Counted from the first letter of the stretch, positions 13,232 through 31,039 are shown. The stretch is DNA of 64,000 bases from Candidatus Limnocylindrales bacterium (GCA_038915165.1 JBCLDE010000001.1:6234-70233), one strand, 5' to 3'. The notes: generated by a model not told the origin, from the letters alone. Translations and numbers: made by a program.

Positions 13232-13345
13232 GGGGAAACGGTTCGCGTCGATCACGTTGGCGAGTTCTCCCAAGTATCCGTCGAGTCGGGTGTGCTCATC
13301 GGGCAACGGTAACCCCCGTCGGACAGATAGGCCATCATCGCGTCG

Positions 13346-14863: not shown

Positions 14864-14899
14864 CCGGCCGGGTGGGCCGTACCTACAGGCGAGTGAGCG

Positions 14900-16336
14900 T
14901 CACCATCCCAGCAACCGACTCCACAGCACCCCCCACAGGTTGATCGCGACCGACAGCACGATGAGGCCGATAGCGAGCGGCATGCCCCACGAGCGCCGGT
15001 CGGCGAGCCGCTGGAACCCGAGCGCGACCAGGAGCAGGGCGAACGGCGCCGCGTCGTTGCTGAACCGATACCCGAATTGGACCCAGCCCTGGCTGAAGTG
15101 CATGAGGTTGACGAACGCGATGGCCACGACCGCCACGGTCGCACCGCTCACCAGGCGACCGCGGCCATAGCGGCCGAGGACCACGATCGCGAGCAGGTAG
15201 GCCGGGCTCGTCAGGATGACGCTCATCCCGGTGTCGCGCGGGACGGCGAGCGGGCAGGCCAGGTCGAATAGGCTACGGACGGCCCCCGGCTCCGTACACA
15301 CGGGTTGCGGGGCGATGGCCAGGCTGTCCGGCAGGGCGGCCGGGAAGATGTCGGGCAACCCGAACAGCGCGATGCCGAGGTTCTGGGGCAGGTAGCGCGG
15401 GTCCTCCACCGCCCAATCCGGATGGTAGCCGAGGCTGGGGTAGCCGTAGCTTTCCAGCTGGTAGAGGTAGTCGTAGGCCGGATGGAAGACGTGGCCGGTC
15501 GTCACCACGTTGTAGGCGATCAAGGCGAGGACCGGCAGTGCCGCCCCGAGGCCGGCTGACCAGGTCCGCCGACGCCAGTCGCCACCGCCCCCGACGAGCG
15601 CGAAGAACGGTGCCCCGAAGATAACGGTCAAGCGGGCGGTGCAGGCCAGCCCGAACAGGAACCCGGCCACGAACTGGCGCGGATCGACCGCCAGCCTGCC
15701 GCCGAGGCGCCGACCAGCACGACCGGCGGCGGACTCCGGGTCGGCGCCGAGGGCGATCCCGATGGCCAGGAAGGTCAGCCCCACGGCCGCGATGTGGGCC
15801 TGGTACCAGGTCGTCGAGAGCTGGGCGCTATACCAGAAGACGGTGCCGAAGGCGAAGAACAGGGTGGTGCACAGCCGGACCGCCGGCCGCACCGGGAGGC
15901 GACCCAGCACCCACCAGCAGAGCGCGACGTCAGTCGCGGCCAGGATGGTGAAGATGGTCTGATCGTCCGTGGCGAGGCCCCACAAGGCCACGAACGGGAG
16001 AAGCACGATGGCGGGCAGCGGCGGGAAGGGGAGCAGGCCACGCGGCACGCCGTTCGCCTTCACGATCGGCAGGACGTCCTGGAAATAGTCGTTCCCGGGC
16101 GCTCCGCCGACGCTGAGGACCGGGTAGCGGATCGCGGCTTGACCCTCGAGGAACGCGGCCGCCTGCCAGACGAAGTGGTCGTAATAGCGGTCCGCCGCGG
16201 TCGCCAGGTACACGGCCGATGACCCGAACACGAGTAACAGCCCGACCACGATGGCCAGCCCTCGGGCGTAGCGCGCGTCGGGCCAGGATGCCGTGTCGGG
16301 GTCTGCCAGGCGACCCTGTGCTACGCTCCGATCCAC
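14900..16336 (-). CDS. polytopic GT-C fold glycosyltransferase (ArnT/PMT-like); start uncertain (ORF to 16495, GTG at 16336)
   Basis: The protein has about 11 hydrophobic segments. The periplasmic-loop-like motif is DRYYDHFVWQAAAFLEGQAAIRYPV...GLLPFPPLPAIVLLPFVALWG. It sits inside the glycosyltransferase cluster. Confidence 0.55.
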   Translation of the reverse strand: MDRSVAQGRLADPDTASWPDARYARGLAIVVGLLLVFGSSAVYLATAADRYYDHFVWQAAAFLEGQAAIRYPVLSVGGAPGNDYFQDVLPIVKANGVPRGLLPFPPLPAIVLLPFVALWGLATDDQTIFTILAATDVALCWWVLGRLPVRPAVRLCTTLFFAFGTVFWYSAQLSTTWYQAHIAAVGLTFLAIGIALGADPESAAGRAGRRLGGRLAVDPRQFVAGFLFGLACTARLTVIFGAPFFALVGGGGDWRRRTWSAGLGAALPVLALIAYNVVTTGHVFHPAYDYLYQLESYGYPSLGYHPDWAVEDPRYLPQNLGIALFGLPDIFPAALPDSLAIAPQPVCTEPGAVRSLFDLACPLAVPRDTGMSVILTSPAYLLAIVVLGRYGRGRLVSGATVAVVAIAFVNLMHFSQGWVQFGYRFSNDAAPFALLLVALGFQRLADRRSWGMPLAIGLIVLSVAINLWGVLWSRLLGW

Positions 16337-16367
16337 CTTTCCACGCTCGTGCAGGAGCCGATTCCCG

Positions 16368-19300
16368 GTGACTGGCCCCGCATCAGGTGGGACCGAGCAA
16401 GGCACACGAGCGCCGTCGCGGCTGACCGGGACGCAGGGAGCCGTCGGCGCGGTCCTCGTGGTCCTCGCGCTCGGTCTCGCCCTTCGATTCATCATCGCAT
16501 ACCTGCTGCCAGGGTCTGGATTCGGAGTGGATCTGGGCGCGTTCCGGTTCTGGGCGCACGACCTCGCGACGAACGGCCCAGCGGGCTTCTACGAGCGAGA
16601 CTTCTTCCACGACTACACGCCCGGCTACCTCTACGTCCTGTGGCTGGTCGGCATCGTCGGCAACGTCGTGGGTGGCGTCGGCGACCTCATCAAGGTGCCG
16701 GCGATCCTGGCCGACCTGGCCATCGGCTGGCTGGTCTGGTCGATGATCCTGGAGCTCGGAGGTCGCCGCAGCCTGGCGCTTGGGGCCGCTCTCGTCGCGG
16801 TCGCGAACCCGATCAGCTGGTTCGACAGCGTCGTCTGGGGCCAGGTCGATTCGGTGGGCGTCGTCTTCCTGCTGCTCGGCCTCCGCGAACTCTGGCGCGA
16901 CCGCCCGGAGAGGGCCGCGATCTTCACCGTGATCGCCGCCCTGATCAAGCCGCAACTCGGGATCCTCATCCCGATCCTCGCGCTGGTGACGATCCGCCGC
17001 GCGTTCTGGCCCGTCCGCGATCCGGTGGTCGCGATCCAGCCCGAGTCGACCGCGGTCGCCGGCATCTGGGCCCGCTTCCTCGCCTGGGAGCGCCGGACGG
17101 ACCACCCGTTCCGGATCGTCACGACCGGACTGGTGGCCCTGCTCACGACCGTCCTGCTGTGCCTGCCGTTCGGGCTCTCCGTCCTGGAGTTCAGCCCCGA
17201 GGCGCCGTACCTTAAGTCCGGCCTGATCGCCCAGATCTTCGCCACGGCGTCCGGCTATCCGTATCTGACGGTCAACGCCTTCAACCCTTGGGCCCTCCTT
17301 GCGGGCGACACGGGCTACAGCCTCGCCAACGCCGGACTGTGGGTCTGCGACGGTCCATGGGGGCCCGACAAGTGCGGCTCGGGGGTCGCGTTCCTCGGCA
17401 CCATCCCGGCGGTCCTGGTCGGGAGCCTGCTGATGATGATCGTGACGGTCGTCATCTCGTTCGTGGCCGCGCGGCGCCCGGACCGCCTCACGATCCTCCT
17501 CAGCCTGACCCTGCTCGCACTGGCCTTCTACGTCGTTCCCACCCGCGTCCACGAGCGCTACGCCTACCCGTTCTTCGCGCTTGCGATCATGCTCGCGGTC
17601 ATCGCCTGCCGCTGGCGGATGGCCTATCTCGTCCTGTCAGTGACGATCCTGCTGAACATGTACGCGGTCCTGACAAACCCGTTCTACGCGAACCCGGGAA
17701 TCAGCGACTGGCTTGGCATCGGACCGCTGATCCGGTCTGAACCGGGCGTCGCGGTCATCGCGCTGATCAATGGCGCGGTCTTCCTGTGGGCATTCGCCCA
17801 GCTTCGTGCCGGGGCGCGCAACAGTTTGGCGAAGGGCCTGGCAACCGAGGAGGCGCGCGCACTGGCGGAGGACGAGCCGCTTGCCCATCGCGCCGGCGTT
17901 GTGCGCGACCCCCCACCGCCTTCTCCGGCCGTTCGTGAGGCGACCGCGGCGGCGGCAGACGATCACGGGAGCGCCACGGCTGGATCGACCGGTCCCGCGA
18001 TCACCGCGATCACCGCGGCGCTCCCGACCTGGACGCCGCGCCCCACCTACGCGGAGATCGGTGTCCTCGGCTGGTTCAAGGCACGCCTGCGCGAGGCGCC
18101 CATCCGGCCGGACCGCAGCGCAGCGCTTCGATCCGAACGTCGCGGCCGTCTCGATCGGCTCGACCTATGGCTCCTCGTCGTGCTCGTCGTCGCGGCGATG
18201 TTCCTGCGCACCTTCCGGCTGGCCGAGCCGCACCAGATGCACTTCGACGAGGTCTACCACGCCCGGACTGCGACCGAGTTCCTGCAGGCCTGGCGCTACG
18301 GCCTGTCGCACGACATCTACGAGTGGACCCATCCGCATCTCGCCAAGTACGCGATGGCCGGTGGCCTGGTCCTGTGGGGCCAGGATCAGGCTAAAGCCAC
18401 CAGCGACCTCGGCGTCTCGGTCAAGGCGTCCGTCGTCGAACCGCGCCGGGACGACCCGCTCTCGCCCGGAGGCCGAAGCGGCGAGCGGCTGCACGTCGCT
18501 ACCGGCTCTGAGGTCCGGACCTACGACCTGCGCACGCGGCGGCTCGTCTCGGTCGTGCAGGCTGCGGGAGCGTCTGCGCTGGCGATCGACAAAACCGGCA
18601 ACCGGCTCATCGTCGGGAACGAGGCGGGCCAGATCTCGACCATCGATCTGTCCGTGCTGGGGAGCGCCGGCGTCGATCCGGGCGGCGAGGCGTTCCCGTT
18701 GGCGACCGTCGACCACCCGGTCGCGAACCTGCTGGTGACCGCTGACGGCGCTTCCATCGTGGCGGCCTCAGCCGACCGCCTGTCAGTCGTGGATCTGGCC
18801 ACGGGCGACGTTCGAGGCAGTCTGGCCCTGCCCGGCATCGCCGACCTGGCGCCCGGCGGCAGTGGTTCTGCGCTGGTGGCAAGGGTCGACGAGGCCAGCG
18901 ATCCGGCGGCGCTCGCCAGCACCCTGGCGGAGCTGTTGTCGGGGGACGCGTCCGACTATGAGGCGCGTCTCGCCAAGGGATCGCCGGGCAGCACCGTCGT
19001 CCTCGGCAGCCCTGGGACCGGCGACGCGCGCAAGGCCCTCGACACGGCGCTCGCCGATGGCCGCCTGCCGGGCGTCAGCATCGACGACGTCGCCCGGGTG
19101 GCCGTCGCGACCAGCGAAGGTGTCACGTTCATCGATCCGGCCCGCGTTTCGAAGGTCAGCACCACCACGCTCAGTGGCGGCGCCCACGGCCTGGCGTTCG
19201 TCACCGGCCTCGCCGACCCCAGGCTCTACGTCACGACCGGCGCGGACTCGGATCCCGGGTACCAGGTCATCGCGGTCGGGGGCGACAGCGCCAAGGCCGG

Positions 19301-21797
19301 GCCGGCGGACCTTGGTCGGCACCCGCTCCCGGCGCCTGGCACCCGGGTCGTCTACGATCGGGCCAGCCAGCAGATCCACATCCTGGGGCTTGTGCCGGGC
19401 AGCTTGTCCGCGTCGCCGTCGGGCACGACGACAGCGCCTGGCTGGACCGTCTACGTCGTGGAACCGCACGGCAACGCCGTCTACGCTGACGCCCGCCTGC
19501 CCGACGGATTCGTGCCCAGCGCCTGGGCCGCGGACATCGAACCGGACTATCCGGCCGAGGATCGCCAGCGGCTGCTGGTCTTCGCGGGGGGTGGCGCATC
19601 GGCCTCGATCGACGTCGGGTCCCATGCCTTCGCGTGGCGGCTCCCCGGCGTCATCGCCGGTGCTCTGACGGCCGGGCTGCTCTACCTGCTCGCCCGGATC
19701 CTCTTCCGGCGCCGCCTGGTGGCCGGCCTGTTGGCGCTCTTCGTCCTCGCCGACGGGATGTTCTTCGTCCAGTCGCGGATCGGTATGAACGACGTCTACG
19801 TCGGGCTGTTCATCGTCGCCGCATACACGCTGTTCGCCGCTCTGTGGACGGGCTGGTGGCGGGGACGGGCCGCCTTCTGGCTGGCGATGCCGGTGATCGG
19901 CGTGCTGCTGGGCCTCGCCCTGGCCAGCAAGTGGGTGGCGGCCTACGCCATCGGCGCGCTCGTCCTGTTGATCCTGGTCCGCAGCGCGCTCGGACGGGTC
20001 CTGTCGATCATCGGCCTCATCGGTATCACCGGCGTCCTAGGCTACATGGCCATCAGCGTCCCGGAAGGGTCGGGGTTCGGGAACTTCACGTTCCTGCTTA
20101 TCATGGTCGCGCTCACCCTGATCGCCGTCGTCGTCGCGGTCGTCCACCCGATCGCCTGGACCGACGAGGAACTCCGCTTCGCGGTCGGCGCCCCGGTCGT
20201 CCTCGGGACGCTGGTCTTCTTCGGTGCCCTCGCTGCCGGCCGGCTCGACACCTCGATCGTGCTTGGGCCCGTCGCCGTCACGCCGCTGCTCGTGGCGATC
20301 GCCCTGGCCAGCGGGTCGCTCATCGTGGCCGGGCTGTTCTGGCTGGGCGGTCGGTTCGGCTTCGGGCCGCTGGCTGCGCCGCCCGGTCCCGACGATCCGA
20401 TGCGCCTGCTGGAGGCCCCCGGCGAGCCACCCGAGGGCTGGCTCCGGCCGGGCTGGCAGCTGGGCCTGCCGGTCGTGTTCGCTGCGCTGTGCCTCGTGGC
20501 GATCCCGATCGCCGTCTACGTCGCCACCTATATCCCGTGGGCGATGATCGAGAATCATCAGCTCGTGCCCGGCTGGCCGGTCGGCCACACCGGCCAGACC
20601 CTGGCTGACCTGACCGCCCAGATGTACCGCTACCACACCGGCCTGACCGCGGCCCACCCGGCGTCATCGCCCTGGTGGGCGTGGCCGCTGAACCTCAAGC
20701 CCGTCTGGTTCCATCAGGAGTCGCTCGGGGGCGGGACGACGGCCGCCCTGTACGACGCGGGCAACCTGGTCATCTGGTGGCTGGGCATCCCGGCCATGGC
20801 CTTCGTCGCGTGGATGGCGTTCAAGCGCCGGAGCCTTGCCCTGACCCTCATCGCGGTCGGTTTCGCGGCCCAATGGATCCCTTGGGCGCGGATCGATCGA
20901 GCGGCCTTCCAGTACCACTACTACACGGCTCTGCCGTTCGTGGTCCTGTCCCTTGCCTACTTCGCCGCCGAGCTGTGGCACGGCGCGTCCCGCCACACGT
21001 GGCAGTTGGCGCGCCTGGCCGGCGCGGCCGCGATCGTGGCCCCGGCCATCATGTGGCTACTGGACCGGCCGCTCTGCGCGTTCGTCGGGGTCGAGTCGGT
21101 CAATCCGGGTTCTCAGGCCTGTCCGGCCGTGATCCCGCAGTTCGTCCTGACCGCACGGTCCGCCGGGCTGGTCGGCGTCCTGGGGGTGGGCCTCGTCGTC
21201 ATCGTGCTGCGCTTTCTGGCGTTCGATTCGCGTGACCGTCATGCGACCGGCCGGAACCAGCTGACCGACGCGTTCCGCTCGCTGATCGGGACCGGCCTCG
21301 TCGTGGTCGCGGCGCTCGTCGTCGTGGCCTTCCTGCCCGACACGCCGATCCTCACCCTCACCAACGTGTCGGTGGAACCGATCGCGTTCCTCGGGGCCAT
21401 CCCGCTCGGCTATCTCGCGCTGCAGGTCATCGGCTCGCGCGACGCCCGCCGGTTCACGGTCGGCCTTGTCGTGGCCGCGGTCGGCTGGTTTGCCATCCTC
21501 TACCCGAATATCAGCGCTCTGCCGCTGCCGTCCGCCGTCGTCAACGCCTACCAGGGCATCCTGCCGACCCACCTGTACGCGTTCCAGTTCCCGATCAGCA
21601 CGGTCGATCGAAACAAGGAGATGCCGCTCCTGACGCCGATGCTGGGCGTCCTGCTTCTCGCGCTCGTCGCGACCTGCCTGGTCGTCGCCTACTCAGCCTG
21701 GGTCTGGCGACTGACGCTTGCCGAAGAGGCCGCCGCGGCGAGGGCCTCCGCGGCGTCGGACGAGACCGAGGGCCTGGCCCGGACCGGCGGCGCCTGA
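16368..21797 (+). CDS. giant (~1810-1834 aa) fusion of two GT-C glycosyltransferase modules; the second is PMT/GT39-like with a ~410-aa YVTN-beta-propeller-like insertion. Start uncertain (ORF from 16293)
   Basis: Module 1 (~16425..17800) carries FYERDFFHDYTPGYLYVLW...SVVWGQVDSVGVVFLLLGL...LIKPQLGILIP (Gpi18/ALG-like). An Ala/Pro linker follows. Module 2 begins near 18160 with HFDEVYHARTATEFL...YEWTHPHLAKY, with the DE motif at 18246..18251. The insert spans 18380..19620 (GAHGLAFVTGLADPRLYVTTG). The PMT core then resumes (AWRLPGVIAGAL...SRIGMNDVYV) and ends in a PMT C-terminal-like region (AAHPASSPWWAWPLNLKPVWF...AFQYHYYTALPF). Confidence 0.7.
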   Translation: MTGPASGGTEQGTRAPSRLTGTQGAVGAVLVVLALGLALRFIIAYLLPGSGFGVDLGAFRFWAHDLATNGPAGFYERDFFHDYTPGYLYVLWLVGIVGNVVGGVGDLIKVPAILADLAIGWLVWSMILELGGRRSLALGAALVAVANPISWFDSVVWGQVDSVGVVFLLLGLRELWRDRPERAAIFTVIAALIKPQLGILIPILALVTIRRAFWPVRDPVVAIQPESTAVAGIWARFLAWERRTDHPFRIVTTGLVALLTTVLLCLPFGLSVLEFSPEAPYLKSGLIAQIFATASGYPYLTVNAFNPWALLAGDTGYSLANAGLWVCDGPWGPDKCGSGVAFLGTIPAVLVGSLLMMIVTVVISFVAARRPDRLTILLSLTLLALAFYVVPTRVHERYAYPFFALAIMLAVIACRWRMAYLVLSVTILLNMYAVLTNPFYANPGISDWLGIGPLIRSEPGVAVIALINGAVFLWAFAQLRAGARNSLAKGLATEEARALAEDEPLAHRAGVVRDPPPPSPAVREATAAAADDHGSATAGSTGPAITAITAALPTWTPRPTYAEIGVLGWFKARLREAPIRPDRSAALRSERRGRLDRLDLWLLVVLVVAAMFLRTFRLAEPHQMHFDEVYHARTATEFLQAWRYGLSHDIYEWTHPHLAKYAMAGGLVLWGQDQAKATSDLGVSVKASVVEPRRDDPLSPGGRSGERLHVATGSEVRTYDLRTRRLVSVVQAAGASALAIDKTGNRLIVGNEAGQISTIDLSVLGSAGVDPGGEAFPLATVDHPVANLLVTADGASIVAASADRLSVVDLATGDVRGSLALPGIADLAPGGSGSALVARVDEASDPAALASTLAELLSGDASDYEARLAKGSPGSTVVLGSPGTGDARKALDTALADGRLPGVSIDDVARVAVATSEGVTFIDPARVSKVSTTTLSGGAHGLAFVTGLADPRLYVTTGADSDPGYQVIAVGGDSAKAGPADLGRHPLPAPGTRVVYDRASQQIHILGLVPGSLSASPSGTTTAPGWTVYVVEPHGNAVYADARLPDGFVPSAWAADIEPDYPAEDRQRLLVFAGGGASASIDVGSHAFAWRLPGVIAGALTAGLLYLLARILFRRRLVAGLLALFVLADGMFFVQSRIGMNDVYVGLFIVAAYTLFAALWTGWWRGRAAFWLAMPVIGVLLGLALASKWVAAYAIGALVLLILVRSALGRVLSIIGLIGITGVLGYMAISVPEGSGFGNFTFLLIMVALTLIAVVVAVVHPIAWTDEELRFAVGAPVVLGTLVFFGALAAGRLDTSIVLGPVAVTPLLVAIALASGSLIVAGLFWLGGRFGFGPLAAPPGPDDPMRLLEAPGEPPEGWLRPGWQLGLPVVFAALCLVAIPIAVYVATYIPWAMIENHQLVPGWPVGHTGQTLADLTAQMYRYHTGLTAAHPASSPWWAWPLNLKPVWFHQESLGGGTTAALYDAGNLVIWWLGIPAMAFVAWMAFKRRSLALTLIAVGFAAQWIPWARIDRAAFQYHYYTALPFVVLSLAYFAAELWHGASRHTWQLARLAGAAAIVAPAIMWLLDRPLCAFVGVESVNPGSQACPAVIPQFVLTARSAGLVGVLGVGLVVIVLRFLAFDSRDRHATGRNQLTDAFRSLIGTGLVVVAALVVVAFLPDTPILTLTNVSVEPIAFLGAIPLGYLALQVIGSRDARRFTVGLVVAAVGWFAILYPNISALPLPSAVVNAYQGILPTHLYAFQFPISTVDRNKEMPLLTPMLGVLLLALVATCLVVAYSAWVWRLTLAEEAAAARASAASDETEGLARTGGA

Positions 21798-22948
21798 GGG
21801 ATCGGCGCCCGGAAGTCGGTCGGCAGCGAACCGCTGGCGGCCAGCCGCCGGATGACGAAGCCGTAGTAGTCCTCCACCCTGGCGGTGACGCGCGGCCAGC
21901 TGAAGTCCTCGGCCCGAGCCCGTCCGGCCTCGCTCATCCTCGCCCGCAGCTCGGGCTCGGAGAGGAGGCGGCCGATCGCCTGGGCCAGCTCCTTGGGCTT
22001 GCGAGGCGGGACGAGCAGGCCTTCGCGACCGCGCCGGACGACCCCCTTGTAGCCGTGGATGTCCGAAGCCACGATGGGCGCTCCGGCGGCCATCGCCTCC
22101 AGCAGGACGATGCCGAACGATTCGCCACCGGTAGCCGGCGACGTGAACACATCGGCCGTCCGAAACAGCTGCGCTTTCTCCGCATCGGAGACCCGGCCAA
22201 GGAATTCGACCGCCTGGAGGCCGCGTGTCGCCACGTAGCGGCGCGCCTCGCGCTCCTGCGGCCCCGAACCAACGACCAGGAGCCGGTTGCCGTAGCCGGT
22301 CTTGCGCAGGATCCGATGCGCCTTCAGCAGGTCAAGCAGCCCCTTGCGCGGCTCGTGCCTGCCGACGAAGAGGACGTTCGGGGTGCCATCCTGCCAGCGC
22401 GCCACCGGGACCGCGCCGGCGAATCGCGGGATGTCGACGCCGTTGGGGATGACCTTGTAGTCGCCCGGAAAGAAGCGGTCGATGAAGTGGCGGGCCGCGG
22501 CGCTGACGGCGATCCGGCCGTGCAGTCGGGCAGCGTGGCCTCGCATCACGCGGCTGCCGATCTCGTAGGACGGGGAGAAGCCCGCGTAGGCATGGAACGT
22601 GGCGATGTTGACGCTGCGCGATTCGCGCAGCAGGAAGAGGGACAGGAACGGCACGAACGGCTCGTGGAAGTGGAGCACGTCGAAGCGCTCGCGGGCGATC
22701 ACGGCGCGGACCTGGCTGATGTAGCGCGGCGAGAACGTGAGCGTCCCGACGGAGCCGTTGGTCGGCATGCTGAAGCCGACGCCGATGCGCAGGACGTCGC
22801 CCTCGGAGGCGCGCTGCGGGCCGTGGCTGGCGGTGATGATCCGGACGTCATGGCCACGCAACCGCAGGTTCGCGTACAGGAACTGGATGTGCTGGGCGAC
22901 CCCGCCCGACTCGGGGTAGATGTACGGGCAGACCAGACCGATCTTCAT
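21689..22948 (-). CDS. pimA: GT4 glycosyltransferase, PimA-like (phosphatidylinositol alpha-mannosyltransferase type)
   Basis: The product reads MKIGLVCPYIYPESGGV...PTNGSVGTL...FDVLHFHEPFVP...ATFHAY...GRIAVSAAA...IPNGVDI...FVGRHEPRKG...GGESFGIVLLEAMAAGAPIVASD. This tracks mycobacterial PimA block by block. The ATGA overlap with the upstream PHP gene lies at 22945..22948. Confidence 0.8.
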   Translation of the reverse strand: MKIGLVCPYIYPESGGVAQHIQFLYANLRLRGHDVRIITASHGPQRASEGDVLRIGVGFSMPTNGSVGTLTFSPRYISQVRAVIARERFDVLHFHEPFVPFLSLFLLRESRSVNIATFHAYAGFSPSYEIGSRVMRGHAARLHGRIAVSAAARHFIDRFFPGDYKVIPNGVDIPRFAGAVPVARWQDGTPNVLFVGRHEPRKGLLDLLKAHRILRKTGYGNRLLVVGSGPQEREARRYVATRGLQAVEFLGRVSDAEKAQLFRTADVFTSPATGGESFGIVLLEAMAAGAPIVASDIHGYKGVVRRGREGLLVPPRKPKELAQAIGRLLSEPELRARMSEAGRARAEDFSWPRVTARVEDYYGFVIRRLAASGSLPTDFRAPIPQAPPVRARPSVSSDAAEALAAAASSASVSRQTQAE

Positions 22949-23790
22949 CGGGGTCCGCGCTCGCCGGAATCGAAGCGCGGCGGCCGTAGCCGTCCACCCG
23001 GATAGCCGTGGTCGCGGCCCGTGCCGTCGCGGCGCAGGCGACCAGCCACCTCCGCGCGGGCGTCTCGGCCTCGCTTGCGCAGCTGCTGGCCGAACGTGCC
23101 GAGCTGGCCGGCCAGCTCGTGGAACGAGCCGCCGTGATCGGTCGTGCGCCCGACGATGGCCCGGTGGAGGTCCGCCGCGTCGCTCCCCGGGAAGGTCGTC
23201 CAGCCAGTCCCGATGGCGTCGAGGGTATGCGCATCGCTGTTGCCCAGGCGAGCCAGACCGTGGACATCGGCGAACTGGACGACGCGGCGATGCCAGGGCC
23301 GCCCGAGGGCCGTCGGGTTGAACGTTTCGAGGCCGTCGGGGTGGACCGCCGGGTTCGGGTCGTCCAGGAGTCGACGCAGGACCCAACCCTGGGCGCACAG
23401 CGGGAACGGAACGAGCGGATGGGCCGGGATGGCCAGGCCGCCGGCGTCGTGGACCGCGAGGATCGTCTCGCGCAGCGAGCGCAGCGGACGGATGGGCCGC
23501 TCCACGAAGAGCGCCAGGAGGTGCCCGCCGAGCGTGGTGACCTCCTCGCCCACGACGACCTCGACACGCAGGCCGCGGTCGCGTGCCATGGATCGAGCCG
23601 CGAGCGCGGCATCGACCCGTCCGTGGTCCGCGATGGCGATGATGTTGAGGTCGGTCCGTCCCTCGACGTGGGTCAGGATGGCGTCGATGCTCGCGGTCCC
23701 ATCGCTGGCGAGCGTATGGATGTGGAGATCGGCACGGCCGCGTCGCTCGACGCCATCCGCCATGCCTTGGTGGGCCACCGGCTGCGTCAT
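22945..23790 (-). CDS. PHP-domain metal-dependent phosphoesterase
   Basis: RADLHIHTLASDGTASI (HxH motif), IIAIADHG, AIPAHP and LGNSDAHTL are typical PHP metal ligands. The gene is coupled by ATGA overlaps on both sides (23787..23790, 22945..22948). Confidence 0.8.
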   Translation of the reverse strand: MTQPVAHQGMADGVERRGRADLHIHTLASDGTASIDAILTHVEGRTDLNIIAIADHGRVDAALAARSMARDRGLRVEVVVGEEVTTLGGHLLALFVERPIRPLRSLRETILAVHDAGGLAIPAHPLVPFPLCAQGWVLRRLLDDPNPAVHPDGLETFNPTALGRPWHRRVVQFADVHGLARLGNSDAHTLDAIGTGWTTFPGSDAADLHRAIVGRTTDHGGSFHELAGQLGTFGQQLRKRGRDARAEVAGRLRRDGTGRDHGYPGGRLRPPRFDSGERGPR

Positions 23791-24785
23791 GCCGCGGCCT
23801 CCTGTTTGGCCCCGGCCTCCCGTGCTGCGTCGGCCTCGAGGTCCGGCCAGATCGGGAAGAAGACGGCCCACCATTGCTCCGGAGCGTCGGCGATGAGCTC
23901 CTCGAAGGCGGCGGCCAGGGCGGTCATCGTCGACGTGACACGCTCCCGTCGTGAGCCGTCTGCGGGGACGTCGATCGGGATGAGGCGGGCGCGGAAGCGG
24001 CCCTTGCCGGCGCGCCGGACGCCCATCGCGTAGGTCGGCACGCCACTTTCGACAGCGAGCATGGCGGGCCCCATGGGCAGCACGGACGGAGCGCCGAAGA
24101 GCGGGATGGGTGTTCCGCCGCCGGTCAGGTCCCGGTCGCCGACGAGGCCGACCGGGATGCCCTCGCGGAGTGCGGTCAGCAGGGCGCGACGCGCCTTGCG
24201 CAGGCCGACGAGGCGGATCCCGGCCACGCCGCGCGTCCGCTCGAAGTAGGCCTGCAGGCCCGGGTCGTCGATGGTCTCCATCGGCGTCACCGTGCTCCCG
24301 ACCCGAAAGGCGAGGAAGACGACGGCCAGCTCGAGGGAGCCGAAGTGCAGGCCGACGAACAGGACGGCCTTGCCCGGCACGACGGCCTGGGCGATGAGTT
24401 CCGGCGTATCGAGGATCAGTCGCTCGTCCACGAATCCGCGGGTGACTGCCGGCGTTCGGGCGACCTCGATGTAGTAGCGAGCGGCATGCCGGTAGGCGCT
24501 GCGGACCAGTCGCTCCAGGGCGACAGGGTCCGTGGCGGCCGCGCGAACGGCCGGGCTGCCACGCCCCGAGGCGTGCAGCGACTGGGCAACCCGGCGGAGG
24601 TTGCGGCGGGCCTGGGCCGCGCGGTCCGGGGTCGTCCGGTGCCACAGGTCGCCGGCCAGTTCGGCGGCTCGGAAGAGCGGGCCTTCCGGCAGTCGGCAAG
24701 CGAGCCAGGACGCCCCGATGAGCGCCCGGCCGCGAAGTCGCGAGCCGAGGCCCACGCGCCGGACGGTGTCGGCGCCGTCGCTCAC
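23787..24785 (-). CDS. lysophospholipid/lipid A-type acyltransferase (HtrB/LpxL family; PatA-like), copy 2
   Basis: It has the family layout: NLRRV...AYRHAARYYIEVAR...GKAVLFVGLHFGSLE...GLVGDRDLTGGG...FGAPSVLPMGPAMLA...PEQWW. The GTG start at 24785 overlaps the upstream stop (GTGA). Confidence 0.75.
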   Translation of the reverse strand: MSDGADTVRRVGLGSRLRGRALIGASWLACRLPEGPLFRAAELAGDLWHRTTPDRAAQARRNLRRVAQSLHASGRGSPAVRAAATDPVALERLVRSAYRHAARYYIEVARTPAVTRGFVDERLILDTPELIAQAVVPGKAVLFVGLHFGSLELAVVFLAFRVGSTVTPMETIDDPGLQAYFERTRGVAGIRLVGLRKARRALLTALREGIPVGLVGDRDLTGGGTPIPLFGAPSVLPMGPAMLAVESGVPTYAMGVRRAGKGRFRARLIPIDVPADGSRRERVTSTMTALAAAFEELIADAPEQWWAVFFPIWPDLEADAAREAGAKQEAAA

Positions 24786-25750
24786 GGGGCGTCGTCCACG
24801 TGTGTGCCGTGGCCGTCCTCGGATCCGAGCGCCGGGCCAGGGTCCCGCTGCCCGGCCTGCATCGTCCGTGCGCGCCGCTCGAGGTCCGCAGCCTCCTCGG
24901 CGGTCTCTGGCCAGATCGGCTTGAAGCTGTACCACTGCTCGGGGGCCGGCCGGATGGTGTCGGCCAGGGCGTCGGCGACCGCCTGGGTAGCCCGCTGGAG
25001 CTCAGCCGGATCCGAGGACGTGACTGTGATCGGATCCCCCCAGCCCACGTGGAGACGGCCGCCGGGCTGGCGGGTCGTCACGATCGGCAGGATGCGCGAG
25101 TGGGTCTTGGCCGCCAACGTCGCCGGTCCCGCGGGCAGCGTGGTCCATGCACCGAACAGCTGCACCGGGATGCCGTCACTGCGGTAGCCCCAGTCGACGA
25201 GAAGCCCCAGCATCTCGCGCCGTCGAAGGACCCCAAAGATCGCCCGCAGGTTGCGCCATGGGATGAGCGTCGCGTTCCACTGCTCGCGTTGGCGCTTGAG
25301 CAGGTCGAACAGTTCAGGGAACGATGAATCGTCAGCGACGACGCTGAGCGGCAGGCCGAGATCGGCGATCGCCGCCCCGATGACGTCGTTGTTGCCCACG
25401 TGGCCGACGGTCAGGATGAGTCCGCCATCCGATGATGCCCCCAGGATCCGCCGCGCCTCCGCACCATCGATGGGATCGACGAGTTTGACGATCTCGTCGG
25501 GCTGCATGAACGGCACACGCATGAGCTCGACGAGGTAGTCGCCATACGCTCGGTAGGCGCGCAGGGCCATGGCACGGACCCGGGGATCGCCCGGCGGCAG
25601 ACCCAGGACATGCCCGAAATTGCGGTTTGACCACGCACGTTTCGTCGGCCAGAGAAGATACGAGGCCTGGGCGCCAAGTCCCAACAGGGCTCCGGCCGGC
25701 CGAGCCGGCACGGTACGCAGGACCCATGCGGCGGCGCGGTAGGCCAGCAC
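24782..25750 (-). CDS. lysophospholipid/lipid A-type acyltransferase (HtrB/LpxL family; PatA-like), copy 1; start uncertain (GTG 25750)
   Basis: It has the same family layout: NFGHVLG...AYRAYGDYLVELMR...GGLILTVGHVGNNDV...GLLVDWGYRSDG...LFGAWTTLPAGPATLA...PEQWY. It is a paralog of the downstream gene. Confidence 0.7.
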   Translation of the reverse strand: MLAYRAAAWVLRTVPARPAGALLGLGAQASYLLWPTKRAWSNRNFGHVLGLPPGDPRVRAMALRAYRAYGDYLVELMRVPFMQPDEIVKLVDPIDGAEARRILGASSDGGLILTVGHVGNNDVIGAAIADLGLPLSVVADDSSFPELFDLLKRQREQWNATLIPWRNLRAIFGVLRRREMLGLLVDWGYRSDGIPVQLFGAWTTLPAGPATLAAKTHSRILPIVTTRQPGGRLHVGWGDPITVTSSDPAELQRATQAVADALADTIRPAPEQWYSFKPIWPETAEEAADLERRARTMQAGQRDPGPALGSEDGHGTHVDDAP

Positions 25751-25824
25751 GACGGACCGTTCCAGGATCCGTGATCGTGCCCCACCGCGCCGGTGCGGCG
25801 CCTCGAGTCGACGCTCGCTCGAGT

Positions 25825-27069
25825 TCACTTGGCGGCGGCTACCTTGGCCTTCGATCCGGCGAGCTTGCGCAGCGTGCGCTTGGGCGGTGCCTCCGTCCCG
25901 ACGAGGGTCTCGTTGTCTTCGCCCCGGATGAATGCCTCGACGCGGTTGAACGCGATGTCGTCGTGGATCTGGTGCGGCGGGCTCTTCATGAAGTAGCTCG
26001 ACGGGGCGACCAGCGTTCCGGCCAGGCCGCGGTCCAGGCCCAGCTTCAGGCAGCGGATGGCGTCGGTGATGACGCCGGCGCTGTTCGGGCTGTCCCAGAC
26101 CTCCAGCTTGAGCTCCACATTGAGCGGGACATCGCCGAAGGTCGTGCCCTCCATCCGGATGTAGCACCACTTGCGGTCCAGGAGCCACGGCACGTGGTCG
26201 CTTGGGCCGACATGGATGTCGTCGGGGTCGAGCTCATAGTCGAGCATGGACGTCACGGCGTTCGTCTTCGAGATCTTCTTCGACTCGAGGCGCTCGCGCT
26301 CCAGCATGTTGAGGAAGTCCGTGTTGCCGCCGAAGTTGAGCTGGTAGGTGCGGTCCAGGCGGACGCCGCGGTCCATGAACAGGCGAGTCAGGACGCGGTG
26401 GGTGATCGTTGCACCGACCTGGCTCTTGATGTCGTCGCCGATGACAGGCAGGCCGGCCTCTGCAAAGCGACGCTGCCAGTACGGCTCGCGACCGATGAAC
26501 ACCGGGATGGCGTTGATGAAGCCGACACCGGCTCGGAGCGCCTGCTCGACATACCACTTGGTCGCCTCTTCCGAACCGACTGGCAGGTACGAGACCATCA
26601 CATCGACTTCGCGCTCCTTGAGGATGCCCACGATGTCGGCCGTGGGGCCGGGCGCCTTCTCGATGATCTGGCTGAGGTACTTGCCCAGGCCGTCGTGGGT
26701 CATGCCGCGCTCGACGGTGACGCCGGTGTGGGCCACCTGCTGGAAGACGATCGTGTTGTTCGGCTTCGTGTAGATCGCCTCGGACAGGTCCTTGCCGACC
26801 TTGTTCTTGTCGATGTCGAACGCCGCCACGAACTCGATGTCGCGGACGTGGTATCCGCCCAGGTCGACATGCATCAGGCCCGGGACGAAGTCGTCCTTCT
26901 TGGCCTCCTCGTAGTAATAGCGACCCTGGACCAGACTGCTGGCGCAGTTGCCGACGCCGACGATCGCGACGCGGATCTTGCCGTCGCCACGGCGCCCGGC
27001 GCCCGCCCAGGTGTTGGTCGGCATCGCGCCGCTCTTGCCGCTCTTGCCGCTCTTGCCGTTGGTGCTCAC
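25825..27069 (-). CDS. ino1: myo-inositol-1-phosphate synthase (start GTG 27069 or ATG 27024)
   Basis: [60 protein letters not shown] and NILGNTDF-like [11 protein letters not shown] are all present. Confidence 0.9.
27028..27058. repeat. 9-bp tandem repeat gccgctctt x3 (+ partial) at the 5' end of ino1
   Basis: Read directly from the sequence. It encodes (GKS)3 if translation starts at GTG 27069. Otherwise it abuts ATG 27024 as 5' leader. Confidence 0.9.
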
Positions 27070-27085
27070 GTCGGTCTCTGTACTC

Positions 27086-27769
27086 CTACTGCGACTGGGT
27101 CGACTGGTGATGGGCCTGGCTGCGGACATGGAGGATCCGCTGGATGACGGTGATGGTGGCACCCACGGCGATGACGGCGAGGGCCGCCGTCAGGGTCCCG
27201 CCCTGCGGGTCGCAGGGACCAGCGCACGCGGTGCCCGCCGGGACGGCTTCGTAGATCGGCACCGGGGCAAGGATCAGCCCCAGGCAGAGGATGACCAGGC
27301 GAACCTCGCGCGGCATGACGCCCACGGCGGCCATCCCGGTCCCGGCGGTGAACCCGAGCCCCTCCGACTTGGCGCGCGTGTAGCTGACCATGAACGCCGC
27401 GCCCATCGCCGCCGCGGCGAGGATGGCTCCCTCAACGAAGCCGGCGAAGGCACAGCCGGCGATGATCCCGACGTAGACCAGCATCTCGCCCCAACGATCG
27501 AAGATAGAGTCCATGAACGCGCCGAGCCTGCTGACCTTGCCGATCGCTCGGGCCAGGGTCCCATCGAACATATCGAAGACGCCGCCGATCAAGACGACGA
27601 GGCCGCCGACGAGCCAGAGCTGCTGCGATACAAGGACGGCCCCGACCGCGGTGATCGCGAAGCCGATGAGCGTCAGGGCGTCAGGCGTCAGGCCGAGCCG
27701 ACCCATGCCGAGCGCGATCGGCTCGAAGGCCTTCTTGACGCGTGTGCGGGAGTCGTTGGAGATCGTCAT
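27086..27769 (-). CDS. CDP-alcohol phosphatidyltransferase (phosphatidylinositol-phosphate synthase-like)
   Basis: The signature D(x)2DG(x)2AR(x)8G(x)3D(x)3D is seen as [31 protein letters not shown]. The gene is adjacent to ino1 and a pimA-like gene. Confidence 0.85.
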
Positions 27770-27772
27770 CGG

Positions 27773-28018
27773 CTAGATGGCGAAGCCGAGGACGGCCCGT
27801 TCGCGAGCGGCGAACTCGGCGAAGGCCTCTCCGCGCAGGCGACAGACCGTTTCGCGGCCCTGACGGCGAGTCTCGACGACGCCGGCTGCCCGCAGGCGAC
27901 CGAGGTGCCACGAGACGAGCGGCTGGGAGAGCCCGACGTGGGCCGTGAGCTCTGCGACAGTGGCCTCGCCACCGGCCAGGCTACGCACGATGCGCAGCCG
28001 ATTGACGTCGGCCATCAC
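27773..28018 (-). CDS. ArsR/SmtB-family HTH transcriptional regulator, first gene of the inositol-lipid operon
   Basis: The 81-aa product reads RLRIVRSLAGGEATVAELTAHVGLSQPLVSWHLGRLRAAGVVETRRQGRETVCRL, a winged-HTH ArsR pattern. Confidence 0.8.
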   Translation of the reverse strand: MMADVNRLRIVRSLAGGEATVAELTAHVGLSQPLVSWHLGRLRAAGVVETRRQGRETVCRLRGEAFAEFAARERAVLGFAI

Positions 28019-28135
28019 CTTGTGGAAGAACCGAAGTTGGCGCAGGTCTTCCGGTTGGACGACGGCCGCGGCGATCGTGCCACGGACTCGTGCTCGCGAG
28101 GGGGACAGGGCAGTCAGGCTCCGATGGTGGTGGTC

Positions 28136-28171
28136 GCATCAACCACGATTTATATCAATCGCCGTTGATGC
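28136..28171. promoter_or_regulatory. 36-bp nested palindrome in the arsR/MFS divergent intergenic region (candidate operator)
   Basis: The element reads GCATCAAC-ca-CGATT-tatatc-AATCG-cc-GTTGATGC. The outer 8-bp arms (28136..28143 / 28164..28171) and the inner 5-bp arms are exact complements. The core is AT-rich in a GC-rich spacer. Confidence 0.4.
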
Positions 28172-28255
28172 TAAGACGTCCCGCCACCGGATGTCAAGCG
28201 ATGGACGCCCGACAGTCATGGACGCCCGCGGTCGGACAGTCGATACACTCCCCGG

Positions 28256-29983
28256 ATGGACCGTCGTTCGGCGCTCGTGCTGCTCGTCGTCTTCGGGACA
28301 GGCGTGTTTCTGGCGGGCCTCGAGTTGATGGTCACCGCCGTCGCGCTGCCGTCCATCCTGGCCGACCTTGCCGATCCGAGCGGCACCTCGGCGTGGGTCG
28401 AGCTGCGCAAGGCCAGCTGGATCATCAATGGCTACCTCCTGGTCTACATCCTGACGATGCCGCTCGCGGGCCGGCTGGCCGACCTGTGGGGTGCGCGCCG
28501 GCTGTTCATGGGGGCGCTCGTCGTGTTCACCGTCGGTTCGGCGCTTGCCGGCGCCGCGCAGACCCTCGACCAGCTGATCGCCGCCCGGCTGGTCCAGGCG
28601 GTCGGAGGCGGGGTGCTGGTCCCGGTCGGTACGGCGGCCGCGTCGCACTTGTTCGAGGGCGCGGCGCGTCCCCGGGCGCTCGGTGTCATCGGCGCCCTGA
28701 CCTTCCTCGGGATGGCCGCGGGGCCGGTCGTCGGTGCGGCGATCCTGGCGTCCGTCCACGCCGAGGGTGCCCTCGCGGCCGCCGATAGCAACGGCTCGCT
28801 CGCCGCGATCCTTGCGCCCGCGTGGCGGTGGGTCTTCTACGTGAACATCCCGATCGGGATCGTCGCGTTGACCCTGGCCTGGGCCGCCTCGCCCGATTGG
28901 GAGACGCCGCGCCGTCCCGGGCGGGTGGATCTTGTGGGCGCCGCCCTGTTCGGGCTCGCTCTCCTTGTCGGCCTGCTGGGGTTGACCCTGCTTGGCAGCA
29001 CGGAGGTGGCCGGTACTGCTGTCGAGCCCGCAGTCGTGACCGTCGGACTCCTCGGCGTGGCGGCGGTCGCCTCGATCAGTGCCGTCGTGCGCGGGCTGCG
29101 CGTTGACGATCCCTTCCTGGACCCGCGGCTTTTCCGGAGCGTGCCGTTCAGTTCCGCGGCCCTCGTCTCGCTGCTGACCGGGTACGCCTTCGCGACCGCC
29201 ATCATCGGAGGCGCCGTCTTCGTCGATCGCGTCCTTTACGGTGGGCCGGACGAGCAACGGTTGGCACTCGGCGCACTGGCCGGGGCGACCGCACTCGGCG
29301 CGCTTCTCTCGGGCTTCATCGTGCGGGTCGTACCGCTCCAGCTGGTCACGCTGGCCGGCCTGGCCCTGAGCGTCGGCGGGCTGCTGGCGATGGCTACCTG
29401 GACGTCGGGCGTCGGGGTGCAGACGGTCGCACTAGCGCTCGGTGTGTTCGGCTTCGGATTCGGGCTGACCGTGACCCCGCGGTCCACGGCTGCCGTCGAG
29501 GCCGCCGGTCGGCGATCGTTCGGCGTCGCCTCGGCCGTCGTGACGGTCGCCCGGATGATCGGCATGGCGAGCGGCCTCGCCATCCTGACCGCCTACGGCT
29601 CGACGACGATCGACCGCCTGGCGGCCCAGGTCTACGCGACGCCCGACGCCTACCTCCAGTTCATCCCCGAGTCACTGCGCGATCGACCGCTGCGCGACCC
29701 GTTGGTCGTCGGTGCCCTCGAGGAGTGGGCGTCGCGCGAGGCGGCCGAGATCATGGTCGGGTTGTTCGTGGTCGCCGCCATCGTGACGGCAGCGGCCGTG
29801 CCGCCGGGCCTCGCGCTTGGCGGCAGGCGCGGGAACCGGGCGGGTATGCTGCGCGATGGACCGGCCGCGACGGACGCGGCGGAGGGGACCACCGCGAGAG
29901 GACCGGACGCCGATGGCCGCGACTCATCCGAACCCGGGTCTCGCGCTCTGATGCGCGGGTCGCCCCCCAGGGTGAGCCCGTGA
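28256..29983 (+). CDS. MFS transporter, DHA2 (EmrB/QacA-like, 14-TMS type)
   Basis: The product reads LELMVTAVALPSILADL...NGYLLVYILTMPLAGRLADLWGARRLF...LIAARLVQAVGGGVLVP. It has about 14 hydrophobic segments and a long C-terminal tail. Confidence 0.85.
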   Translation: MDRRSALVLLVVFGTGVFLAGLELMVTAVALPSILADLADPSGTSAWVELRKASWIINGYLLVYILTMPLAGRLADLWGARRLFMGALVVFTVGSALAGAAQTLDQLIAARLVQAVGGGVLVPVGTAAASHLFEGAARPRALGVIGALTFLGMAAGPVVGAAILASVHAEGALAAADSNGSLAAILAPAWRWVFYVNIPIGIVALTLAWAASPDWETPRRPGRVDLVGAALFGLALLVGLLGLTLLGSTEVAGTAVEPAVVTVGLLGVAAVASISAVVRGLRVDDPFLDPRLFRSVPFSSAALVSLLTGYAFATAIIGGAVFVDRVLYGGPDEQRLALGALAGATALGALLSGFIVRVVPLQLVTLAGLALSVGGLLAMATWTSGVGVQTVALALGVFGFGFGLTVTPRSTAAVEAAGRRSFGVASAVVTVARMIGMASGLAILTAYGSTTIDRLAAQVYATPDAYLQFIPESLRDRPLRDPLVVGALEEWASREAAEIMVGLFVVAAIVTAAAVPPGLALGGRRGNRAGMLRDGPAATDAAEGTTARGPDADGRDSSEPGSRALMRGSPPRVSP

Positions 29984-30006
29984 CGCCCCAGGGTGAGCCC
30001 GTGACG
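29965..30006. repeat. perfect 21-bp tandem duplication (ccccagggtgagcccgtgacg x2) spanning the MFS stop / corA start junction
   Basis: The copies lie at 29965..29985 and 29986..30006. Each contains GTGA, so each provides a candidate GTG start. The first also carries the MFS TGA stop at 29981..29983. Confidence 0.95.
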
Positions 30007-31008
30007 AGGCAGCGGGCCCCCTCCCGGAGCGGCCAGCCTGGAACGATCCGGATCGCGGCGTTTGAGGGCGACAGCATCCTCGAATACGAAGGCCCGACGG
30101 CGCTGGCGCGCCTTCCGGATCTGCTCCGCCAGCCCGACGCCTCGATCTGGGTCGACCTCACGGCGCCGAACGAAGACCAGGTCCAGCAGATCGGTGTGGC
30201 CCTCGCCCTCCATCCACTCATCATCGAAGACGTCCTCGAGGGTAACCAGCGGGCGAAGATCGAGGCCACCGACGGCGTCATCCACATCGTCCTGTTCACG
30301 CTGACCTCGGGCGACCAGGTCCTGGCGTCCGAACTGGACATCGTCCTTGGACTCGGCTTCCTGCTGACTGTTCACGACGGGCCGTGGGATCCTCGGGCGA
30401 CCCACCACCTCCACGGCGGGGTCGCTCCGCTCCTCAAGCGGGGGCCGGACCACCTGCTCTGGGCGCTGGCCGACGACATCGTGGACGGTTACTTCCCATT
30501 CGCCGACGCCATCGGCGACGCCATCGACGACGTACAGGACGAGGTGGTCCGAAAGGCGACCCGAGACACGCTGGAACGCCTCTTCACGCTCAAGCGCGAG
30601 CTCATCCAGGTGCGCCGGGCCATCAGCCCTGTTCGCGAGGTCTTCAACCAGCTGACCAACCGCGACGAGGCGCTCATCGATGCGAATGAGGTCATCTATT
30701 TCCGCGACATCTACGACCACATCATCCGCTTGACCGATGAGCTCGACAATTACCGGGAGCTGGCCTCCGCGACGCTCGACGTCTACCTGACGCAGGTCAA
30801 CAACAACCTTTCGGTGATCATGAAACGCCTCACCGGGGTGACCGTCATCGTCGCCGGCATCGGCGCGATCGCCGGCATCTTCGGGATGAGCGAGGCCGGG
30901 TCGGCCATCGCCGGCGGCGCGGCCGTCGGGTTCTGGGCCGTCACTGTGTTGACCGTCGCGCTGGCCGTCGGAGCCGTGATCGTCCTGCGCAGGATCGACT
31001 GGATCTGA
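29980..31008 (+). CDS. corA: CorA-family divalent cation transporter with GMS in place of the GMN motif (start GTG 29980 or 30001)
   Basis: The cytoplasmic domain carries HPLIIEDVLEGNQRAKIE. The coiled stalk reads YFRDIYDHIIRLTDELDNYRE...NNNLSVIMKRLTGVTVI. The pore loop is IAGIFGMSE (atg agc at about 30866..30871), followed by a final TM. Confidence 0.8.
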   Translation: MTPQGEPVTRQRAPSRSGQPGTIRIAAFEGDSILEYEGPTALARLPDLLRQPDASIWVDLTAPNEDQVQQIGVALALHPLIIEDVLEGNQRAKIEATDGVIHIVLFTLTSGDQVLASELDIVLGLGFLLTVHDGPWDPRATHHLHGGVAPLLKRGPDHLLWALADDIVDGYFPFADAIGDAIDDVQDEVVRKATRDTLERLFTLKRELIQVRRAISPVREVFNQLTNRDEALIDANEVIYFRDIYDHIIRLTDELDNYRELASATLDVYLTQVNNNLSVIMKRLTGVTVIVAGIGAIAGIFGMSEAGSAIAGGAAVGFWAVTVLTVALAVGAVIVLRRIDWI

Positions 31009-31039
31009 CGCACTGCACAGCCGGCGCGAACCGCCGCCA

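Follow-up and report, generated by a model that had tools for sequence, protein, structure and literature searches.

Seven head-to-tail genes on the minus strand of a 64,000-nucleotide stretch of Candidatus Limnocylindrales DNA (GCA_038915165.1, JBCLDE010000001.1:6234-70233; hereafter the window) probably form a single transcription unit for acylated phosphatidylinositol mannoside (PIM)-type glycolipids, a reading to which homology and gene context lead us to assign a probability of about 0.7. The unit encodes an ArsR-family regulator, a phosphatidylinositol-phosphate synthase (PIPS), a myo-inositol-3-phosphate synthase (MIPS; Ino1), two acyltransferases (AT1 and AT2), a PHP-family phosphoesterase and an orthologue of the mannosyltransferase PimA, in the order ArsR-PIPS-Ino1-AT1-AT2-PHP-PimA. 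This order recurs in all 80 species-level Limnocylindria loci, which is far beyond chance. A first-pass annotation, made from the sequence alone, had drawn a parallel with the mycobacterial pgsA1-patA-pimA operon, and the parallel is borne out by ~45% identity to PimA together with PIP (phosphatidylinositol phosphate) synthase and PatA-family matches. The Limnocylindria locus is a richer variant of this known operon for phosphatidylinositol (PI) and PIM synthesis, and a search of the literature returned no earlier description of such a PI/PIM operon for Chloroflexota.

The window is part of contig 1 of a 2.4-Mb metagenome-assembled genome (MAG; 69% G+C, completeness 77%). Its taxonomic position, Chloroflexota, class Limnocylindria (Candidatus Limnocylindrales), was read from the names carried by close relatives of its proteins and of the locus. 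The host is a soil or freshwater Chloroflexota. The features of the unit, in window coordinates and in the direction of reading, are as follows.

28168..28197, minus strand: sigma-70-like promoter, TTGACA, 18-nt spacer, TAGCAT (consensus scan, 10/12 matches)
28138..28169, minus strand: two abutting 16-bp operator-like sites, pattern AT[AC]A-N8-T[GT]AT (motif kept upstream of arsR)
27773..28108, minus strand: ArsR/SmtB-family winged-helix regulator, ~111 aa (HTH_5 5e-14, NF033788 75.7 bits)
27086..27769, minus strand: PIPS, a CDP-alcohol phosphatidyltransferase, 227 aa (PF01066 and PIP/AIP synthase models)
25825..27069, minus strand: Ino1 (PF01658 125 bits, TIGR03450 538 bits)
24782..25750, minus strand: AT1, PatA-side clade, ~322 aa (PF03279 1.5e-28; PatA structures 4e-17)
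23787..24785, minus strand: AT2, PimA-proximal clade, 332 aa, GTG start overlapping the AT1 stop (GTGA) (PF03279 1.4e-25; PatA 9e-17)
22945..23790, minus strand: PHP-family trinuclear-metal phosphoesterase, 281 aa, candidate PIP phosphatase (PHP_C 4e-11, PHP 9e-4)
21689..22948, minus strand: PimA orthologue of glycosyltransferase family 4 (GT4), predicted GDP-mannose:phosphatidylinositol alpha-mannosyltransferase, 419 aa (PimA alignment)

Gene order, control region and conservation

The seven open reading frames (ORFs) extend from 21689 to ~28108, and the promoter carries the unit to 28197. An ORF read-out, with Pfam and NCBIfam, recovered all seven at the positions and with the domains of the first-pass annotation, apart from the arsR start discussed below. 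The last four genes are joined by 4-nt overlaps at exactly the places first reported (GTGA at 24785..24782, ATGA at 23790..23787 and ATGA at 22948..22945); the count of such junctions is three, not the four claimed. Elsewhere the genes are separated by 3 nt (ArsR/PIPS), by 16 or 61 nt (PIPS/Ino1, depending on whether Ino1 starts at GTG 27069 or ATG 27024) and by ~74 nt (Ino1/AT1). In a consensus scan of positions 21400-28400, the promoter upstream of arsR was the sole promoter-like site on either strand (shuffled sequences average 0.3), and no minus-strand terminator-like site was found within the cluster. From this packing we infer a common transcript.

Gene content is equally stable within the class. 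The 80 Limnocylindria loci comprise 51 complete copies and 29 cut by a contig end, with none deviating from the order given above, and ino1, the second acyltransferase, PHP and arsR, which the first-pass annotation had counted as members of the unit, are conserved parts of it and not passengers. Of 301 Chloroflexota genomes sampled, 221, representing 133 of 171 genera, have a PimA orthologue (E <= 1e-55), nearly always as a single copy. PIPS adjoins pimA in each of the 33 distant-family loci read out. The surrounding genes vary in a modular fashion: ArsR-Ino1-AT1-AT2-PHP-PimA-PIPS, the same arrangement minus PHP, Ino1-PHP-PimA, Ino1-PimA-PIPS (which stands behind nusA-infB-rbfA-truB in small genomes) and PimA-PIPS alone. 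We propose that the PimA-PIPS pair is the ancestral Chloroflexota core, with Ino1, the acyltransferases, PHP and ArsR as modular additions. PIPS lies downstream of pimA in most Chloroflexota; Limnocylindria shifted it to the operon front and by chance recreated the mycobacterial relative order.

Two operator-like sites lie within the control region. Site 1, ATCAACGGCGATTGAT (28169..28154), overlaps the -10 hexamer, and site 2, ATAAATCGTGGTTGAT (28153..28138), abuts site 1. Of 62 loci, 59 carry the motif ahead of arsR, 44 of them at least twice. In the roughly 1.02 Mb of locus DNA scanned, it occurs 109 times, and 103 of these hits fall inside the 260-nt regions upstream of arsR; these figures count for less in that the pattern was derived from the same sequences as were counted and the loci are mostly close relatives. 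Matching sites also accompany clusters of distant families (for example ATAAGCGGACATTTAT, ATAACGGACTCTTTAT and ATAAAGTTTTCTTTAT), in which an ArsR homologue also heads the cluster.

The regulator itself is recognized by NF033788 (75.7 bits against a cut-off of 55) and PF01022 (HTH_5, 53 bits). The first-pass annotation had placed arsR at 27773..28018; the gene and its family stand, whereas its start probably lies at CTG 28108, ~30 codons upstream of GTG 28018. These 30 codons encode the peptide LSPSRARVRGTIAAAVVQPEDLRQLRFFHK, which is conserved in relatives at the protein level. Several relatives carry no start codon at the position of GTG 28018 and have GTG or ATG at that of CTG 28108, which in some of them is preceded by GGAGG. 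The conserved upstream peptide and the start codons of the relatives thus argue for a protein of 111 aa, a normal ArsR size. When this 111-aa sequence was read for metal sites, it showed one Cys, no CXC and no alpha-5 His/Asp/Glu motif, and the protein is probably a non-metal-sensing member of the family. As the product of the first gene of the unit, ArsR probably represses its own promoter through the two abutting 16-bp sites, and their layout over the -10 hexamer would fit such autorepression.

The spacer bearing the operators is shared with a divergent gene for a major facilitator superfamily (MFS) transporter (28256-29983, plus strand; MFS_1, weak Sugar_tr), which is kept in 44 of the 51 complete Limnocylindria loci. 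Beyond it, a 530-aa ORF without a Pfam match (29650-31242, minus strand) is conserved across the class.

Enzymes of the predicted lipid pathway

We infer all steps of the pathway from homology and gene context. Ino1 would convert glucose-6-phosphate to inositol-3-phosphate, which the CDP-alcohol transferase would combine with CDP-diacylglycerol (CDP-DAG) to form PIP. PHP may then strip the ring phosphate from PIP, leaving PI, a reaction that is more speculative than any other here and to which we give about even odds. The PimA orthologue, translationally coupled to PHP, would add a hexose, probably mannose from GDP-mannose, yielding PIM1, and AT1 and AT2, two anciently diverged PatA-like enzymes, would attach acyl chains, AT1 probably as the PatA-equivalent mannose-6-O-acylase and AT2 in a second, different acylation. 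The 'nearly self-contained route' from glucose-6-phosphate and CDP-DAG to acylated PIM-type lipids, as the first-pass annotation described it, is retained here as a prediction. In cultured Chloroflexota, PI ranks among the major polar lipids (PMC12453558).

The CDP-alcohol transferase scores 134 bits with the archaetidylinositol phosphate (AIP) synthase model NF040950, 108 with the PIP synthase model NF045883 and 96 with NF052561. Its top PDB matches are the PIP synthases 5d91 and 6h53, the full D-x2-DG-x2-AR-x8-G-x3-D-x3-D signature is present, and the gene is single-copy in the genome. Grouping with PgsA or cardiolipin synthases, which would have contradicted its annotation as a PIP synthase, did not occur (134 and 108 bits against 28 for PgsA and ClsA). 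Since all scores lie under the equivalog cut-offs (170-180), the protein is best described, on these profiles, as a divergent member of the PIP/AIP synthase branch. The presence of ino1 in the same unit, with no inositol monophosphatase gene in the cluster, is consistent with inositol-3-phosphate as its acceptor.

Ino1 aligns over the whole of TIGR03450 (profile positions 1-355 of 355), with 538 bits against the narrow equivalog cut-off of 638, and is 68-78% identical across the phylum. Of its two start candidates, GTG 27069 is preceded by a GGAG, and this GGAG overlaps the stop codon of PIPS. If translation begins there, positions 27025-27069 encode three in-frame copies of GGCAAGAGC, a tandem repeat before the conserved MIPS core.

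The GT4 protein aligns with M. smegmatis PimA over residues 1-363, covering both Rossmann domains, with E = 1e-60. Other solved GT4 enzymes follow at a distance (PimB' 1e-20, MshA 2e-14, BshA 3e-14), so that the PimA-like assignment is upheld and a grouping with glycosyltransferases that do not act on PI was not observed. The motifs that align with PimA include the N-terminal MxIGxVCPY...GGV, PESGGV, HEPRKG and GGESFGIVLLEAMAAG (E-x7-E); the N-terminal G-G loop and the R/K pair, which belong to the catalytic and nucleotide-sugar motifs, are thereby covered. pimA is single-copy, and the other GT4 proteins of the genome are at most 34% identical to its product, over partial lengths.

For both acyltransferases, PatA is the only match among solved structures. 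Relative to the catalytic residues H126 and E200 of PatA, AT1 carries H-x4-D (HVGNND) and AT2 carries H-x4-E (HFGSLE), each with D aligned to E200. For either protein the best-scoring model is NF005919 (PIM acyltransferase), at 121 bits in both cases against a cut-off of 209. A tree built from 46 acyltransferase sequences (24 loci) separates into two clades according to gene position, PimA-proximal AT2, whose clade tracks position across 22 loci, and distal AT1 (SH-aLRT 93). Clades that follow position in this way indicate an old duplication of which both copies have been maintained, and this in turn implies two different acylation reactions. In mycobacteria, the second (inositol) acylation of PIM still has no assigned enzyme, and the one responsible has been suspected to be unrelated to PatA; AT2 is a candidate for a second acylation in Chloroflexota only.

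Some observations weigh against the pathway as drawn. All of its enzymes score under their NCBIfam equivalog cut-offs, as is expected of divergent members from another phylum. The branch that joins M. smegmatis PatA to the AT1 part of the tree is long and weakly supported. A search of the 77%-complete MAG for a GDP-mannose pyrophosphorylase found none. This last result would also suit a GT4 enzyme that transfers another sugar or uses another acceptor, giving other inositol glycolipids or glycosyl-diacylglycerols. The best NCBIfam scores of the protein are weak and generic, with no PimA-specific match, only some of the basic residues in the amphipathic helix of PimA are conserved, and cultured Chloroflexota have been reported to contain 'unidentified glycolipids' besides PI (PMC12453558). 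Such an activity nevertheless seems improbable to us, given that the similarity to PimA runs forty orders of magnitude ahead of that to any other solved GT4 enzyme, that pimA adjoins PIPS in every distant locus read out, that a candidate GDP-mannose pyrophosphorylase (a GMP-type nucleotidyltransferase) occurs in a relative of the same order and that polyprenyl-phosphate-sugar machinery is encoded next to the operon. Ino1 and the CDP-alcohol transferase might instead make a compatible solute of the di-myo-inositol phosphate type and no membrane lipid at all. CDP-alcohol transferases of the DIPP-synthase type are indeed related (DIPPS model 48.8 bits, a weak match; 4mnd 1.5e-7), but the AIP and PIP synthase models outscore DIPPS by far, the cytidylyltransferase domain is absent, lipid acyltransferases and PimA belong to the same unit and the organism shows no sign of a hyperthermophilic lifestyle, which leaves the solute explanation scarcely credible. 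Synthesis of acylated PIM-type lipids is the reading we prefer.

Directly past pimA, and convergent with it, lies a glycosylation locus (12455-21797). It encodes a family 2 glycosyltransferase of the polyprenyl-phosphate-sugar synthase type (12455-13231, minus strand), a TMEM260-like glycosyltransferase of the GT-C class (13331-14863), an unassigned ORF (14900-16588) and an 1834-aa double GT-C protein whose gene overlaps pimA tail to tail by 109 nt (21689-21797). The C-terminal tails of PimA and of the 1834-aa protein are both Ala/Ser-rich and lie outside the regions of homology. The C-terminal half of the giant protein is PMT-like; its N-terminal module gave no PDB sequence match and reached 24.2 bits with GT87 (the PimE family) against a cut-off of 25. 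This convergent gene keeps its place beside the operon in 48 of the 51 complete Limnocylindria loci, and its product could serve either the extension of PIM-type lipids or protein O-mannosylation.

The PHP phosphoesterase and its link to PimA

The gene for the PHP protein is locked between its neighbours, its ATG overlapping the AT2 stop and its own stop overlapping the pimA ATG. The latter 4-nt overlap recurs in 94 of 113 loci. Among the best 30 PHP loci, all read AT1-AT2-PHP-PimA or Ino1-PHP-PimA, with PHP directly upstream of pimA, and 82 of the 149 genomes with a listed PimA place have a PHP match no more than 600 bp from pimA. A search among long proteins revealed recurrent GT4::PHP fusions whose PHP part is 33-34% identical to ours; several belong to multi-member clusters and one is labelled Gaiellales. 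One such fusion sits in a PAP2-PIPS-Ino1-[GT4::PHP] operon, on a contig with a close relative that bears the label Gaiellales. When contigs were scanned with the PHP alignment, all matches came from close Limnocylindria relatives, in agreement with the taxonomic placement. PHP_C proved too widespread in control genomes to be informative.

In the operon with the fusion, the gene before PIPS-Ino1-[GT4::PHP] is of the PAP2_3 family (locus L165, 3413-4189), an alternative candidate there for a lipid-phosphate phosphatase or an inositol-phosphotransferase. Many other AT::PHP and PHP::GT4 proteins, 70-80% identical, look like fusions but were rejected: they are singletons from long-read assemblies and were taken as read-through artefacts of the 4-nt overlaps.

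The protein is predicted to be built as a working enzyme, on the strength of invariant ligands and a confident fold. Its metal ligands H23, H25, D30, H56, E83, H90, H124, D186 and H188 do not vary among 18 orthologues, and the AlphaFold2 (AF2) model has a pLDDT of 89.9 and a pTM of 0.87. Foldseek searches with this model returned PHP proteins only, at probability 1.0. The best matches were the uncharacterised 3e38 and 2anu, followed by RNase AM and Cv1693 with TM scores of about 0.5-0.6 and 17-24% identity; judged by the model, no function is transferable from these relatives. Likewise, the protein remains far below the equivalog cut-offs for RNase AM (NF047791, 40 bits against 375) and bisphosphate phosphatase (NF041577, 28 against 400). 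Its basic, aromatic C-terminal tail was considered as a clue to a membrane anchor and rejected, being common to cluster and solitary copies and hence non-discriminating.

Related modules occur in other settings. In large genomes of 7.9-9.2 Mb (proteins P0183, P0185, P0187 and P0190), PHP modules ~41% identical to ours are fused to STAS (anti-sigma-antagonist) domains, a sign that the same PHP subfamily is put to a quite different, possibly regulatory use. The Limnocylindrales genome itself (G000) encodes a second PHP/PHP_C paralogue on contig C73 (6397-6975). This copy is 34% identical, has a long branch and possibly fills the housekeeping, TrpH-like role in the organism.

Could PHP be the PIP phosphatase? 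The pathway requires one phosphatase, and no bacterial PIP phosphatase has been identified outside Bacteroides (PMC9246714; PMC9385802); for mycobacteria, only EphE, a predicted PimA binder, has been proposed (bioRxiv 10.64898/2026.07.15.738315). Together with its linkage to PimA, this makes PHP the natural candidate, and we consider it an even bet that the protein acts on PIP. A broader proposal, that PHP is a third, non-homologous type of PIP phosphatase working in a PimA complex that channels PIP to PIM1, and the first PHP-fold enzyme known to act on a membrane-lipid head group, that AT2 is a new PIM acyltransferase and that ArsR is a metal-independent sensor adjusting inositol-lipid synthesis phylum-wide, is tentative, and we would expect it to fail in some part somewhat sooner than to hold as a whole.

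Much of what speaks against a PIP phosphatase concerns distribution. Clustered PHP is missing from ~45% of the PimA-bearing genomes inspected, including complete acyltransferase clusters (ArsR-Ino1-AT1-AT2-PimA-PIPS) and minimal Ino1-PimA-PIPS clusters, and when these PHP-less clusters were searched for a substitute phosphatase, nothing but housekeeping neighbours turned up (nusA-infB-rbfA-truB, prfA and dap genes). One genome (G138) retains a cluster-clade PHP with neither a PimA orthologue nor a PIPS match. Solitary PHP paralogues are common, with neighbourhoods that proved uninformative on inspection, and the closest characterised relatives, RNase AM and a 3',5'-nucleoside bisphosphate phosphatase, act on RNA or nucleotides. 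Within a genuine PI/PIM operon, PHP might accordingly be a nucleotide or RNA phosphoesterase that clears pAp, nanoRNA or GDP/CMP, or a non-catalytic, regulatory partner of PimA, with an unlinked enzyme dephosphorylating PIP. The mycobacterial gene beside pimA encodes a Nudix/LemA scaffold and not a phosphatase (bioRxiv 10.64898/2026.07.15.738315), and the PAP2-family gene beside PIPS in the Gaiellales-type operon may supply a lipid phosphatase there. We hold this explanation to be unlikely, if a serious one. The scores against the RNase AM and bisphosphate-phosphatase models lie far under the cut-offs, the second genomic paralogue could cover housekeeping roles, the coupling to pimA and the GT4 fusion in another phylum would be awkward for a housekeeping nuclease, and the pathway contains no other phosphatase. 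Removal of the ring phosphate from PIP is the role we favour for PHP.

Relation to known systems and significance

PIM-type lipids and their operon are textbook traits of mycobacteria and other Actinobacteria. The pgsA1-patA-pimA operon of mycobacteria and corynebacteria (Rv2612c-Rv2610c, with Rv2609c) likewise unites PIP synthase with a PatA-family acyltransferase and PimA. Limnocylindria share its relative order, PIPS...AT...PimA, and none of the three enzymes has lost its catalytic motifs. Beyond this set, the Chloroflexota operon contains ino1, a second, ancient acyltransferase, a PHP gene coupled to pimA and an ArsR gene with its own operator, whereas it lacks the mycobacterial LemA/Nudix gene (Rv2609c) and the HIT gene.

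In Bacteroides thetaiotaomicron, BT_1522-BT_1526 group MIPS, PIP synthase and PIP phosphatase for de novo PI synthesis from glucose-6-phosphate and CDP-DAG (PMC9246714). The Chloroflexota operon resembles this cluster in bringing together MIPS, PIP synthase and a dedicated phosphatase, here the candidate PHP. The two phosphatases are non-homologous, BT_1525 being PgpA-like and the Chloroflexota candidate having a PHP fold, and the Bacteroides cluster leads to inositol sphingolipids rather than mannosylated, acylated PI, and is devoid of PimA, PatA and ArsR. EphE (Rv3670) has been proposed for the same step as PHP and was likewise argued from a PimA link, not from measured activity; it is an alpha/beta-hydrolase encoded away from pimA, whereas PHP is a trinuclear-metal enzyme of the TIM-barrel type, whose gene immediately precedes pimA and is coupled to it in translation.

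With PHP proteins of the TrpH/YciV type (RNase AM, 7ug9 and 9etk; Cv1693, 2yb1), our protein shares the PHP fold, the PHP_C extension and a complete set of metal ligands. It differs from them in its lipid-synthesis context, as opposed to nucleotide metabolism, and in its low identity to them (17-24%). Cv1693 acts on a molecule with a second phosphate, from which it cleaves a ring phosphomonoester, chemistry that is analogous to the conversion of PIP to PI. The GT4::PHP proteins of Gaiellales/Thermoleophilia (Actinomycetota) offer the nearest parallel for the gene linkage, a related PHP module being tied to a PimA-like GT4 in an inositol-lipid operon. There the two form one polypeptide, in which Pfam reports the N-terminal GT4 only, and the operon has a PAP2-family gene beside PIPS and no acyltransferases.

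The phylum survey suggests that about three quarters of sampled Chloroflexota, which are abundant in soil, freshwater and sludge, carry the PimA-PIPS core. The operon supplies compact candidates for two steps that have lacked an enzyme, the dephosphorylation of PIP and the second acylation of PIM. As far as we have seen, PHP has no mycobacterial orthologue, so the mycobacterial question is not directly solved by it. The conserved regulator-operator pair offers a handle on how bacteria control inositol-lipid synthesis. If the proposed role of PHP is true, the dephosphorylation of PIP would have been solved several times independently.

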